Shown here: positions 1-2,218 of the stretch, one piece after another
Layout: the number at the start of each line of letters is the position of its first letter
How positions within the stretch are numbered: position 1 is the first letter of the stretch
Source of the DNA: a virus
Lineage: Duplodnaviria; Heunggongvirae; Uroviricota; Caudoviricetes
IMG/VR virus record: IMGVR_UViG_2698536508_000032
Length of the DNA: 2,218 nucleotides
Strand: one strand, 5' to 3'
Notes under the pieces: model-generated
Databases searched by the model: none
Told to the model about the DNA's origin: nothing
What the model saw: only the letters and a program-made list of their open reading frames with translations
Position numbers and translations under genes: made by a program

Positions 1-64
1 TGTGCCCCCATCGCTCTGATAGTCTGGTGTCGTCGGGTCCTTCCTGGAATTATGGCCCGTTACG

Positions 65-76
65 GGGCGGCGACCT
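65..76 (+). other. cosN core, 12-nt cohesive-end sequence GGGCGGCGACCT (copy 1)
   Basis: Exact match to the 12-nt lambda cohesive end, flanked by gttacg on the 5' side and cgcgg on the 3' side as in lambda. Confidence 0.8.
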
Positions 77-115
77 CGCGGTTTTTATCTGTTTATGAGA
101 ATTTTCCGGCAAAAG

Positions 116-132: not shown

Positions 133-169
133 CTCTGTAACAGACTGTTTAACAATGAAAATATTAAAA

Positions 170-186
170 AAAGAAAGGATCTGACA
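170..186 (-). repeat. cosB R2-like element, inverted relative to R3 and R1 (minus strand gtcagatcctttctttt)
   Basis: Plus strand reads aaagaaaggatctgac, in the position and orientation of lambda R2 (AAAGAAAGGAAACGACAG). Its reverse complement shares the 12-mer cagatcctttct with R1. Contains GATC at 178-181. Confidence 0.6.
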
Positions 187-214
187 CGAGGCATTTTAGC
201 CAGAAAATGCCATT

Positions 215-231
215 ATCAGATCCTTTCTCAT
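215..231 (+). repeat. cosB R1-like element (atcagatcctttctcat)
   Basis: In the position of lambda R1 (CTGTCGTTTCCTTTCTC). Shares cagatcctttct with inverted R2. Contains GATC at 219-222. Followed by a T-rich tract as in lambda. Confidence 0.6.
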
Positions 232-255
232 TTTTGTTCAATAATTGCGCGTCTG

Positions 256-798
256 TTACTCGCCTTTCTTCTGTAGCAACTTTTCCGGTACGTTTCCGGT
301 TGTTTCTTTCAAGTAATCAGCCAGTATCTGTGGGAGGTTGTCGGCAACTCTGGCACTGGCATTACAGGCTTTAACCACTTCCCTTTTAAGCCTGTCCAGC
401 ATGGCGGGGGTAATCTGTGGGAAGCTCCTTTGCATAGTAAGCGGGAGGATGTCCATGATTGATGAAATCTGACTCGCCAGCTTTGAAAGCGCGTACAGGC
501 AAAACTCAGTATCAATCACGTCACCGCGATCGCGATCGTTTTTAAGTTCCTGCGCCTCTGCCTGTGCTGTCAGTAATCTGATCCTGACTCGTAAAAGTTC
601 ATCATCGTCAATCTCGCCTTTGTCGTTTATAAGCTGGCTAATTGCATTGTTAACCCTATTTTCTATCACGCTGGCAACATCATAAAACGCCTCACGGCCT
701 TTACGCTCAACGGGAGTTACTCCCCACTTGTCGAACGCTGTCGCACTTACACGGCAGCTTTTCGCCATGTTTTTTTTGTTCATCAGATGAGATTTCAT
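256..798 (-). CDS. nu1: Terminase small subunit, lambda Nu1 family (full length, 180 aa from the first ATG)
   Basis: The translation aligns along its whole length with lambda gpNu1 recalled from memory. Examples: N-terminal NKKNMAKSCRVSATAFDKW vs lambda NKKQLADIFGASIRTIQNW (winged-HTH region); RLLTAQAEAQELKNDRDRGDVIDTEFCLYALSKLASQISSIMDILPLTMQRSFPQ vs lambda RLTRAQADAQELKNARDSAEVVETAFCTFVLSRIAGEIASILDGLPLSVQRRFPE; and a conserved C-terminal region. Length (180 aa) matches lambda (181 aa). The start is ambiguous: in-frame ATGs at 796-798, 781-783 and a third further in, none with a strong Shine-Dalgarno sequence. Confidence 0.9.
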   Translation of the reverse strand: MKSHLMNKKNMAKSCRVSATAFDKWGVTPVERKGREAFYDVASVIENRVNNAISQLINDKGEIDDDELLRVRIRLLTAQAEAQELKNDRDRGDVIDTEFCLYALSKLASQISSIMDILPLTMQRSFPQITPAMLDRLKREVVKACNASARVADNLPQILADYLKETTGNVPEKLLQKKGE

Positions 799-799
799 T

Positions 800-837
800 A
801 ATACACCAACTTAATTACTGCTTCAGGTTGGTGTATT
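800..837. repeat. Perfect 11-bp inverted repeat (aatacaccaac, 16-nt spacer, gttggtgtatt) abutting the terS start codon
   Basis: The arms at 800-810 and 827-837 are exact reverse complements. On the minus-strand transcript one arm ends 1 nt before the ATG at 796-798. Confidence 0.5.
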
Positions 838-905
838 GCTTGCATCTTTCCCTTTTCATTCATAAAGATAGATCAAACAACAAAACCACCACCACCCCCC
901 TGAAA

Positions 906-975
906 AGGCTCATAAATAGCGAAAATCCGCGAGGTCTCCGCCCCGTAACAGGTCCATATGCCGGAAAGGACCCGC
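906..975 (-). other. cos: Lambda-type cohesive-end region, copy 2 (cosQ-side flank, cosN, I2-like), inverted relative to copy 1, upstream of terS
   Basis: The reverse complement of 911-975 reads gcgggtcctttccggcatatggacctgttacg|gggcggagacct|cgcggattttcgctatttatga. The 23-mer spanning cosN (gttacg through cgcgg) matches copy 1 (59-81) at 22/23 positions. The following 17 nt of I2-like flank differ from copy 1 at 4 positions but match the lambda sequence more closely, and the cosQ-side flank is about 80% identical to copy 1. Beyond that point (799-905) the sequence diverges from both lambda and copy 1 cosB. Confidence 0.7.
932..943 (-). other. cosN core copy 2, GGGCGGAGACCT on the minus strand (one substitution relative to copy 1)
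   Basis: Plus strand 932-943 is aggtctccgccc. Its reverse complement differs from GGGCGGCGACCT only at position 7 (C to A). Confidence 0.7.
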
Positions 976-998
976 AAAAAAGCCGGATTTCTCCGGCC
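976..998 (-). terminator. Candidate Rho-independent terminator downstream of the 137-aa ORF
   Basis: Minus strand reads ggccggagaaatccggctttttt: a perfect 6-bp GC-rich stem (982-987 pairs with 992-997), a 4-nt loop, then six T. It begins 6 nt after the stop of the 1004..1417 CDS. Confidence 0.6.
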
Positions 999-1003
999 TT
1001 GTC

Positions 1004-1417
1004 TCAGATGGTTTTCAGTATGCGATCGATGTCGCCGTCATCGCCCGGGTTTCTGCCATCGTATGCCATGCCAGCTGATACGGCTTGTGGGCTGTGCATG
1101 TCCATAAAGTTTTCAAAGGCTGCGGTAAGCTCTGGTGCAACCTTCGGGCGTTCCTGCTCTATGGTCATGTTCAGGATGTTTTTAGCCGTATCAACATCAA
1201 TACAAGGCACGTTTGCCATTGCACGTAACAGCGGCTGATAGTCGTCAGATTCATGAAGCGCCATAATCGCATCAGCGCGCGGCTTGTCCTTCTCTTCCAG
1301 GCTGTTAAGTTGATATACGGCCTCGTAGGTTGATAAACCTCTGTCAGCCATTGCCCGCGCTTCGGCTTTAAATTTACTCGCCAGCGGTAGCGTCATGATA
1401 CTTTCATTCGTTGCCAT
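1004..1417 (-). CDS. Hypothetical acidic protein (137 aa), translationally coupled downstream of the D-like gene; function unknown
   Basis: The start ATG at 1415-1417 is preceded by agggggaacg (Shine-Dalgarno GGGGGA) and lies 12 nt after the D-like stop. There is no frame conflict with its neighbours. Composition is acidic (about 23 D/E vs 14 K/R). No similarity to lambda FI, FII, W or Nu3 could be recognised by eye. Confidence 0.6.
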   Translation of the reverse strand: MATNESIMTLPLASKFKAEARAMADRGLSTYEAVYQLNSLEEKDKPRADAIMALHESDDYQPLLRAMANVPCIDVDTAKNILNMTIEQERPKVAPELTAAFENFMDMHSPQAVSAGMAYDGRNPGDDGDIDRILKTI

Positions 1418-1429
1418 CGTTCCCCCTGC

Positions 1430-1765
1430 TTATCGCGCCAGCGGCTGAACGGATACGCCAGAACCCGCAAAGGCGGCGCATTTTTTCGCGTCGGTGTCGG
1501 CGCTCTCAGGCCAGTTAACGGCGGCAATATTGAATATCCCCGTCTTGTAGCACTGTGCTGATTTCTGCGTCGACGTGTCCACGGGGTACGAGGTCAGATA
1601 AACAGCCTTGCCAGATTCCTGACCATCCCACGGCTTAAACTCGCCATTTTCCGCCAGCATCAGCGGGGTAAATTCCTGAATAACGCCAGCATCAGCAGCA
1701 AAATGTACCAGCGTCGTGGATACCTGCTGACTACCTGCAAATAACTCAATGTATGGAGTGTCCAT
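1430..1765 (-). CDS. D: Head decoration protein, lambda gpD family (111 aa)
   Basis: FTPLMLAENGEFKPWDGQESGKAVYLTSYPVDTSTQKSAQCYKTGIFNIAAVNWPESADTDAKKCAAFAGSGVSVQ aligns with lambda gpD [76 protein letters not shown] (from memory). Length matches gpD (110 aa). Shine-Dalgarno cggggggattct precedes the ATG at 1763-1765. Confidence 0.85.
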   Translation of the reverse strand: MDTPYIELFAGSQQVSTTLVHFAADAGVIQEFTPLMLAENGEFKPWDGQESGKAVYLTSYPVDTSTQKSAQCYKTGIFNIAAVNWPESADTDAKKCAAFAGSGVSVQPLAR

Positions 1766-1777
1766 AGAATCCCCCCG

Positions 1778-2218
1778 TTAACCAATTTTGACGATAACAA
1801 ATTTGCGAATATCTGCCGGTACCGGCTGCGGTGCGCTGTGCGTCTGCACGTACTCAATCGCCGGATCGCCGTCCTCAATCCAGTTTTTCGGGTAAAACAT
1901 GTTTTGCGTTGCGCCCGTTCTGACCGCTTCCTGATCCATAATCGCACCATAGGCCACCAGCCCTTTATTGTTGGTGTTACCCAGGACCAGCAAATCAGGC
2001 TCAAGGAAATATTTTTCGGTGCCGTCGCTGTCAGTGTATTTGCCGGAATAGACGACAAGGGCAATATCGCCCAGATAGCCTTTAAAGCTCACCACTTCAC
2101 CCAGGTTTTTACAGGCCAGTTCTGCGGCGTGAGGTAGCCTGAGTTTAACGGAAACTCCTTCCTGAAATAGAATGGCCTCAGAAGGAGCTAATAATGAGCA
2201 GAAAAACCCAACGTTACT
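1778..2218 (-). CDS. E: Major capsid protein, lambda gpE family, C-terminal portion (5' end lies beyond the window)
   Basis: The frame is open from the window edge to the stop at 1778-1780. LGEVVSFKGYLGDIALVVYSGKYTDSDGTEKYFLEPDLLVLGNTNNKGLVAYGAIMDQEAVRTGATQNMFYPKNWIEDGDPAIEYVQTHSAP aligns with the lambda gpE C-terminus LGKAVSYKGMYGDVAIVVYSGQYVENGVKKNFLPDNTMVLGNTQARGLRTYGCIQDADAQREGINASARYPKNWVTTGDPAREFTMIQSAP (from memory). The ORF-track start at 2095 is a GTG inside this longer open frame. Confidence 0.85.
   Translation of the reverse strand, partial: SNVGFFCSLLAPSEAILFQEGVSVKLRLPHAAELACKNLGEVVSFKGYLGDIALVVYSGKYTDSDGTEKYFLEPDLLVLGNTNNKGLVAYGAIMDQEAVRTGATQNMFYPKNWIEDGDPAIEYVQTHSAPQPVPADIRKFVIVKIG

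Follow-up and report, generated by a model that had tools for sequence, protein, structure and literature searches.

The hairpin at 976..998 on the minus strand of the window, the 2,218-nt stretch of DNA that was analysed here, is probably (at about 0.75) a functional Rho-independent terminator that would end the capsid-module transcript of a phage satellite. Rather than a phage genome, the window represents the right-hand end of a phage-inducible chromosomal island (PICI) of the EcCICFT073 type. Taken by itself, the hairpin is an ordinary intrinsic terminator. Comparison of the sequences suggests three new points: the hairpin recurs as a cassette, the model island EcCICFT073 has it too, and its placement against cosQ is specific to satellites. 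We infer termination, and its efficiency, from the anatomy of the hairpin, its conservation and recurrence, its placement at gene ends and the contrast between phages and satellites, each of which is described below.

A terminator-like hairpin ahead of cosQ

The minus strand of the window from 1006 to 961 reads, in order, TGA, GACAAG, GCCGGA, GAAA, TCCGGC, TTTTTT, GC, GGGTCCT and TTCCGG. The TGA (1006-1004) is the stop codon of a 137-aa ORF. It is followed by the 5′ arm of the hairpin (GCCGGA, 997-992), the GAAA loop (991-988), the 3′ arm (TCCGGC, 987-982), a run of six T residues (981-976) and cosQ (973-967). The hairpin starts 6 nt past the stop codon and the T-run ends 2 nt ahead of cosQ. 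The structure lies one base beyond the 76-nt inverted cos repeat of the window (arms 34-109 and 899-974). The original prediction had placed a 6-bp GC stem, a GAAA loop and a T6 tract between the 137-aa ORF and the cosQ flank, and all of these were confirmed in the letters of the sequence. We refer to this putative intrinsic terminator, which is supported by sequence, folding and a discriminant score, as T3.

The core stem of T3 consists of six Watson-Crick pairs (five G-C and one A-T) with a GAAA tetraloop, and has a predicted energy of -10.4 kcal/mol. An optional G.U pair (998/981) and two A-U pairs extend it to nine pairs and -14.1 kcal/mol. The stem was present in both the MFE and the centroid folds of an 81-nt context, and U6 follows it directly on the 3′ side without a gap. 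With so short a core stem, termination may be only partial. T3 has a stable GC-rich stem-loop with a U-run 3′ of the stem, and it is non-coding, co-oriented with a gene and downstream of it. It resembles canonical E. coli Rho-independent terminators in its GC-rich stem, its stable GNRA tetraloop, the U-run directly after the stem, its location a few nucleotides past a stop codon in the orientation of the gene, and its positive discriminant score. It differs from them in that the island hairpin occurs in near-identical copies (6-bp stem, GNAA loop) at several module ends in many islands, and in that its U-run systematically doubles as the T-run flanking cosQ. The proposal that a terminator lies between the capsid genes and cos/terS is therefore supported, both by its position and by a gene-strand sequence in which no hallmark of an intrinsic terminator is missing.

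With a discriminant of the d'Aubenton-Carafa type (energies from ViennaRNA), T3 scored d = +23.4, the sole positive value on both strands of the 2218-nt window. A strict definition of the site (6-bp stem with at least five G-C pairs, loop of 3-8 nt, T6 immediately adjacent) was satisfied in 0/1000 dinucleotide shuffles, and 6% of them contained a site under a looser definition. T3 was not listed by a standard terminator scan of the window, probably because maximal extension of the stem consumes part of the T-run. An Rfam search at E ≤ 1 returned miRNA noise only. A direct repeat overlapping the hairpin (D2, 967-995 versus 1460-1488, 72%) was judged to be due to chance. A nut/boxB site was also considered. 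T3 is followed by U6 and, by eye, there is no GCTCTT-type boxA in the 40 nt upstream; because of the U-run after the hairpin and the lack of boxA, it is not a nut-type antitermination site.

The window is the right end of a PICI

Bases 1-2129 of the window are 100% identical to a chromosomal island found in many STEC genomes. In O26:H11 11368 (NC_013361.1, approximately 1,619,600-1,630,000) this island is approximately 11 kb long, lies between phoQ and roxA, and carries nearly all of its genes on one strand. These encode an integrase, AlpA, an Icd-like protein, a RepA-type helicase, SSB, PerC and small ORFs, together with a major capsid protein (gpE family), a decoration protein (gpD family), the 137-aa ORF, a Nu1-family TerS and a 93-aa ORF. 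The annotation of the island locus L001 and its synteny with EcCICFT073 revealed the integrase, AlpA, primase/helicase replication module and one-directional order of an EcCICFT073-type PICI; the same annotation shows capsid and decoration homologues, a length of about 11 kb, and no tail or lysis genes. The 62-aa island regulator belongs to PF05930 (AlpA) and PerC to PF06069.

Three genes of the capsid module are found on the minus strand of the window. These are the 3′ third of the major capsid gene (1778..2129; lambda gpE family, PF03864), a head decoration protein homologue (1430..1765; lambda gpD family, PF02924) and, as the last gene of the module, the 137-aa ORF (1004..1417), a homologue of EcCICFT073 c1501. 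The major capsid gene is intact in L001 (351 aa) and is cut at 2129/2130 in the window by the end of an IS600-family (IS3-like) element (2130..2218, plus strand), the transposase ORF of which begins MSRKTQRY at approximately 2194. The insertion leaves the last 105 major-capsid codons in frame, and the IS/capsid junction was present in no complete E. coli genome among the matches listed.

The 137-aa ORF was found only in E. coli and is named 'phage head-tail connector protein' by NCBI. It gave no match in Pfam or NCBIfam, and no meaningful match to PDB sequences. Its match to a head-maturation-protease PHROG (E = 6.7e-9) falls at the C-terminal end of the latter, and there is a weak resemblance to lambda Nu3 (22% identity, E = 0.026). 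Its product may be a scaffold-like protein.

Two inverted cos sites

The T-run of T3 faces the second of two cos sites in the window. In this copy (copy 2, minus strand), cosQ (GGGTCCT, 967..973) lies 2 nt 3′ of the T-run. cosQ has been defined as a conserved 7-bp site (PMC4669245). The cohesive-end sequence of cosN, GGGCGGAGACCT (932..943), is identical to that of lambda at 11/12 positions and differs at bp 7. It is followed by an island-type cosB with the terS leader (799..931), which contains GGTGGTGGTGG at 886..876 and a perfect inverted repeat, AATACACCAAC/GTTGGTGTATT, at 837..827 and 810..800, in an R3/R2/R1-like arrangement. Copy 2 has the order of a lambda-type cos, with an identical cosQ, the 11/12 cosN, and a cosB of a different type with R3/R2/R1-like repeats.

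The other site (copy 1, 34..109, plus strand) is inverted relative to copy 2, and its cosQ (35-41) and cosN (65-76) are identical to those of lambda. A lambda-like cosB extends to approximately 234, with the repeat TCAGATCC at 116, at 216 and, inverted, at approximately 177-183. The collinearity of copy 1 with lambda cos extends through an R3/R2/R1-type cosB, which has this repeat of its own. Copy 2 has in common with copy 1 only cosQ, cosN and about 45 nt, after which the island-type cosB begins. The two inverted sites flank terS (34-234 on the plus strand and 799-975 on the minus strand).

In EcCICFT073 the gene order is perC, 68-aa ORF, capsid c1499, decoration c1500, 137-aa c1501, hairpin, cos, rppA, inverted cos and 93-aa ORF. 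The same hairpin, with T7, lies between c1501 and cos/rppA. The island of the window is at the same phoQ-side location and has the same gene order; it differs in having a Nu1-like TerS (180 aa) where EcCICFT073 has RppA (144 aa), and in the interruption of its capsid gene by the IS600-family element. The inverted cos copy of EcCICFT073 has a different repeat, ATGTCCGGTT. Both cos sites of EcCICFT073 have been found to be functional by experiment (Fillol-Salom et al. 2018, PMC6092414). The two copies in the window correspond to these sites. From the order of the map, rather than from the text of the papers, we infer that the hairpin-adjacent cos of EcCICFT073 is cos1, the essential site recognised by RppA. 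The word 'terminator' is absent from the main text of PMC6092414 and PMC6739421 (Fillol-Salom et al. 2018, 2019).

Conservation of the junction

A metagenome scan anchored on the last codons of the 137-aa ORF and on cosQ, with the intervening sequence left free, gave 28 loci. Together with loci examined earlier this made 34 junctions, and the 17-nt stem-loop was identical in all of them, while the length of the T-run (T5-T8) and the neighbouring bases varied. When the 27 unique junction sequences were aligned, 69% of columns were variable and 1.2% of 17-column windows were invariant; variation was seen in 0/17 columns of the hairpin. This invariance is compatible with purifying selection on the hairpin. 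Because the stem never varies, there is no covariation within the main hairpin.

In other islands the hairpin follows the same 137-aa ORF and precedes rppA or rppC; one such packaging protein, the 153-aa protein of locus L015, matches RppC (PDB 6hlk) with E = 1.7e-101. As the same 137-aa ORF, hairpin and cosQ are found before RppC or RppA, the hairpin travels with the capsid module and not with the packaging gene.

A repeated cassette at gene ends

Scoring of the whole island in L001 identified three copies of the hairpin, all on the gene strand. T1 (L001 18641..18626; GAAA loop, T7) lies 7 nt past the perC stop codon, T2 (18270..18255; GCAA, T6) 27 nt past the stop codon of a 74-aa ORF, and T3 (15997..15982; GAAA, T6) 6 nt past that of the 137-aa ORF. 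Including the T-runs, the three copies span 18641..18619, 18270..18249 and 15997..15976, the last of which is 997..976 of the window. Apart from these copies, the 11.4-kb island had a single positive-scoring site, and so did the 20.7 kb of flanking chromosome. In another locus, L167, copies with T-runs were seen at 232-255 and 2505-2527.

T2 is directly followed by a second hairpin and T-run (L001 18236..18202). Behind these tandem terminators, and marking the start of the operon, is a good candidate promoter for the capsid operon, TTGCAT-16-TATAAT (L001 18123..18096, minus strand; also at approximately 375-415 in L167), the -35 of which overlaps a perfect, operator-like palindrome, ATTGCATAAAATGCAAT. 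With the same terminator at both ends (T2 and T3), the capsid operon is bracketed, and likewise in EcCICFT073.

The hairpin motif was found in at least 120 IMG/VR contigs. The matches listed, together with the other loci examined, contain it 214 times, in 89 contexts that differ in their flanks. In 82/89 contexts among the matches listed, the hairpin lies downstream of a co-oriented ORF (60 codons or more), at a median of 7 nt from its end. The loop is always GNAA in the 89 contexts (GCAA 41, GAAA 38, GUAA 5 and GGAA 5, among the matches listed), and each of these is a GNRA tetraloop. As far as sequence can tell, this distribution is the behaviour of a gene-end terminator. A cosN-like sequence begins within 80 nt after 101/214 of the copies among the matches listed. 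The same hairpin also abuts cosQ after the SSB gene in L040, L052, L054, L061 and L063. In islands of this kind an extra cos lies between the SSB-gene terminator and the capsid promoter (L040 5613-5900, L054 10841-11130). This SSB-side cos is missing from L001 (18270..18200) and from EcCICFT073, where the second terminator comes straight after the hairpin. It looks like a cos cassette of about 240 nt that has been gained or lost.

The repeats could alternatively be recombination linkers, or selfish small repeats at module boundaries, with no role in transcription. Identical copies are indeed present where interchangeable modules meet (terS, rppA or rppC after the 137-aa gene; cos present or absent between SSB and the capsid promoter). 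However, 16-22 nt of identity is short for homologous exchange, and a linker leaves unexplained the strict co-orientation, the median distance of 7 nt past the stop codon, the retained T-run and the GNRA loop. We therefore regard this explanation as extremely unlikely.

Termination at these sites is our preferred interpretation. EcCICFT073-type PICIs place a cassette, GCCGGAG-N-AATCCGGC followed by T5-9, just past module-final stop codons, and in particular directly ahead of each cos that one-directional transcription of the island would have to cross. The capsid-module transcript, comprising the 68-aa ORF, major capsid, decoration protein and 137-aa ORF, would then terminate approximately 2-5 nt before cosQ. 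RNA polymerase from the capsid-operon promoter would thereby be kept out of cos and of the packaging-specificity gene (terS, or rppA/rppC in sister islands). The repeated cassette would in this way divide the satellites into transcription units.

cosQ in islands and in lambdoid phages

The late transcript of lambdoid phages must cross cos. The arrangement proposed here for the islands would be the opposite. For comparison, a census of cos sites that took no account of the hairpin was made on IMG/VR with the pattern GGGTCCT-N15-35-ACGGGGCGG (at least 120 rows), and each site was classed as phage or island-type according to the presence or absence of a gpA homologue downstream. Among the matches listed, a terminator preceded cosQ at 0/54 phage sites and at 8/8 co-oriented island-type sites. 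The difference from lambda that had been predicted, namely that capsid transcription stops before cos, thus holds at the level of the sites compared. None of the 54 phage sites among the matches listed had a positive-scoring hairpin ending near cosQ, and their median d was approximately -63. Lambda and the lambdoid prophage of CFT073 likewise have no terminator in the 600 nt upstream of cosN. With these ratios, 8/8 versus 0/54 among the matches listed, a terminator abutting cosQ may serve as a simple sequence marker for a satellite-type cos.

Three upstream gene families and two different stems are represented in the eight island-type sites among the matches listed. The alternative stem, GGCGGC-GATA/ACCA-GCCGCC followed by T6-7, was found in 2/8 of the sites among the matches listed, after a PF25209 capsid gene. 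When the two stem types were aligned on cosQ, pairing was 100%, with 2/6 pairs changed on both sides, compared with 17-54% in slid controls. As this is essentially one evolutionary event, it counts as modest support.

The island has in common with the lambda cos/late operon its cosQ (GGGTCCT), a cosN matching at 11-12/12 positions, the T-run beside cosQ, and a Nu1-family TerS downstream of cosB. In lambda and the lambdoid phages, where pR'/Q antitermination carries transcription through cos into Nu1-A, the T-run is accompanied by an AT-rich palindrome without terminator potential, TGATAATCATTATCA (score -30 to -60 among the matches listed), whereas a GC hairpin occupies this place in the island. 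It appears that the islands have made the cos-flanking T-run into a terminator by setting a GC hairpin in front of it, so that the cassette would exploit a T-run already present beside cosQ in lambdoid cos sites. The phage palindrome with its T-run was seen directly upstream of cosQ in lambda (NC_001416, approximately 48452-48466) and in L172, L192, L212, L226 and L252. It matches the core of the Fur-box consensus, GATAATGATAATCATTATC. We found no description of this palindrome in lambdoid phages.

The presence of a palindrome and T-run at the same spot beside cosQ in lambdoid phages, and the 101/214 hairpin copies that abut a cos site among the matches listed, could also be explained if the palindrome acts as DNA, as an accessory part of cos (for example, in terminase recognition of cosQ at the packaging end). 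We consider this very unlikely. The other half of the copies are far from cos and are still just past stop codons. What the island versions share is GC-rich pairing and a U-run, which is a property of RNA. Three unrelated palindrome sequences at the cosQ-side position argue that there is no common protein site, and the element is absent from islands of the AlpA type, described below.

Expression of terS

The gene downstream of T3 and cos copy 2, terS (256..798, minus strand), encodes a full-length Nu1-family small terminase of 180 aa, with 36% identity to lambda Nu1 along its entire length and a match to Pfam Phage_Nu1 (E = 7.9e-23). Searches of PDB sequences with TerS gave no meaningful match, and none to RppC. 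A scan of contigs with the TerS alignment, using search patterns specific to the N-terminus, gave no match. The length of 180 aa, the Phage_Nu1 match and the lack of a PDB match to RppC rule out an Rpp protein (144-153 aa) as the product of this gene.

It had been predicted that terS is expressed from a signal of its own within 799-931. A standard scan detected no sigma-70-like promoter between cosN and the terS start on the minus strand of this interval. A permissive scan (at least 7/12 matches, with A2 and T6 of the -10 required) found nothing from cosN to the start codon in TerS-type intervals, and only noise overlapping the start codon in the Rpp types. The interval from cosN to the start codon had no sigma-70-like promoter in TerS-, RppA-, RppC- or AlpA-type islands. 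The region upstream of the capsid operon scored 9-10 in the same permissive scan. With no promoter-like site at standard or permissive thresholds, this part of the original prediction is without support in the sequence. Activator-dependent promoters often lack a recognisable -35.

Gram-negative PICIs are transcribed in one direction (rightward) under the control of a helper-induced AlpA activator. Literature searches on these islands turned up nothing about terminators or read-through, or about promoters of rpp or terS. In EcCICFT073, RppA is expressed and is required for transfer (PMC6739421). Since RppA is expressed despite the presence of the same hairpin, and no promoter is visible downstream, either termination is incomplete or bypassed or the promoter is atypical. 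The data allow two routes to terS expression: a promoter that escaped recognition and probably depends on an activator, or read-through, either leaky or regulated.

In the second case the terminator would be real but conditional or leaky. terS and rpp would have no promoter of their own, would be reached by read-through and would not form an independent unit. Read-through could come from the fraction of polymerases that escape termination, which would give a high ratio of capsid to TerS, or from polymerase made terminator-resistant after helper induction, for example via AlpA. We hold this to be a tenable possibility, somewhat short of even. It would account for the lack of a sigma-70-like promoter from cosN to the start codon in four island types, for the expression of RppA in EcCICFT073 despite the hairpin and, by eye, for the lack of an obvious promoter between T1 and the 74-aa ORF. 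It also fits one-directional transcription under AlpA, as the 62-aa regulator of the island is a PF05930 AlpA, and there is a precedent in AlpA of P. aeruginosa, a processive antiterminator (PMC7969949, PMC9371919). On the other hand, the capsid operon has a strong promoter candidate with an operator-like palindrome, so the alpA promoter need not drive everything. Moreover, among PDB sequences the island AlpA matches only the PICI/phage AlpA structure 8c3t, with no P. aeruginosa AlpA entry among the matches, and activator-dependent promoters without a recognisable -35 would escape the promoter scan.

Alternatively, termination could be efficient and terS an independently regulated unit with its own promoter in the cosB region (799-931), as originally proposed. 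We think this unlikely, though it has points in its favour, as terminator-like structures are present on both sides of terS. The structure downstream of terS (166..234, minus strand) consists of a 16-bp stem that encloses an inner hairpin, with U7 behind it (A7 at 166-172 on the plus strand). It folds at -41.7 kcal/mol (z = -7.2) and arises from the R2/R1-like inverted repeat in cos copy 1; the plus strand likewise folds strongly. In addition, EcCICFT073 in which cat replaces c1499, or with tetA inserted in c1501, still transfers; both changes are upstream of the hairpin, and transfer needs RppA. The marker cassettes carry their own promoters, however, so that these genetic data are indecisive. 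No promoter-like site was found in 799-931 at any threshold tried, and, outside the cos elements, the interval shows little conservation from one island type to another.

Whichever way terS is expressed, termination at T3 itself remains the reading that we prefer, and the hairpin poses a testable question, namely how rpp and terS are switched on. Their control bears on the hijacking of helper packaging and on engineered PICI delivery vehicles. By analogy with known antitermination systems, the near-identical GNRA-loop terminators behind perC, ahead of the capsid promoter and right before each co-oriented cos might be conditional gates. Such gates would halt ordinary transcription where modules end and shut it out of cos, and would be read through in a Q-like manner only by polymerase modified by the AlpA-family activator, a proposal that we consider rather unlikely. 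The likeness to lambda Q, N/boxB and P. aeruginosa AlpA antitermination is one of functional analogy only: the island has several intrinsic terminators, a one-directional array and one AlpA-family activator. Unlike a nut site, the island hairpin is followed by a U-run and, by eye, has no boxA-like GCTCTT upstream. If such gates exist, expression of terS and rpp would be coupled to induction of the helper phage, and Gram-negative PICIs would be controlled by antitermination, like their lambdoid helpers.

Islands of the AlpA type

A further group of islands (L003-L013), found by TerS homology, has an AlpA-family gene in place of the 137-aa ORF and no canonical terminator. The IMG/VR census of cos sites described above comprised no island of this kind. 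In these AlpA-type islands the 3′ arm of the hairpin is cosQ itself, and is followed by UUU only. Discriminant scores were approximately -5 in E. coli, and nothing scored above -40 in Enterobacter/Citrobacter. The terminator is thus dispensable for this lifestyle. The second AlpA-family gene of these islands encodes 114-127 aa, and the hairpin is GGGCCCGC...GCGGGTCC or GACCCG...CGGGTC, located at 4176-4200 on the minus strand in L003-L005 and at approximately 3300-3330 in L006, L009 and L012. In the Enterobacter-type loci (L006-L011, approximately 5540-7510) what comes after the island is a 254-aa fragment of a lambdoid major capsid gene, then FI, FII and Z homologues. This order suggests that the island is inserted within the capsid gene of a helper prophage. 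Helper-embedded PICIs have been described (PMC10111431).
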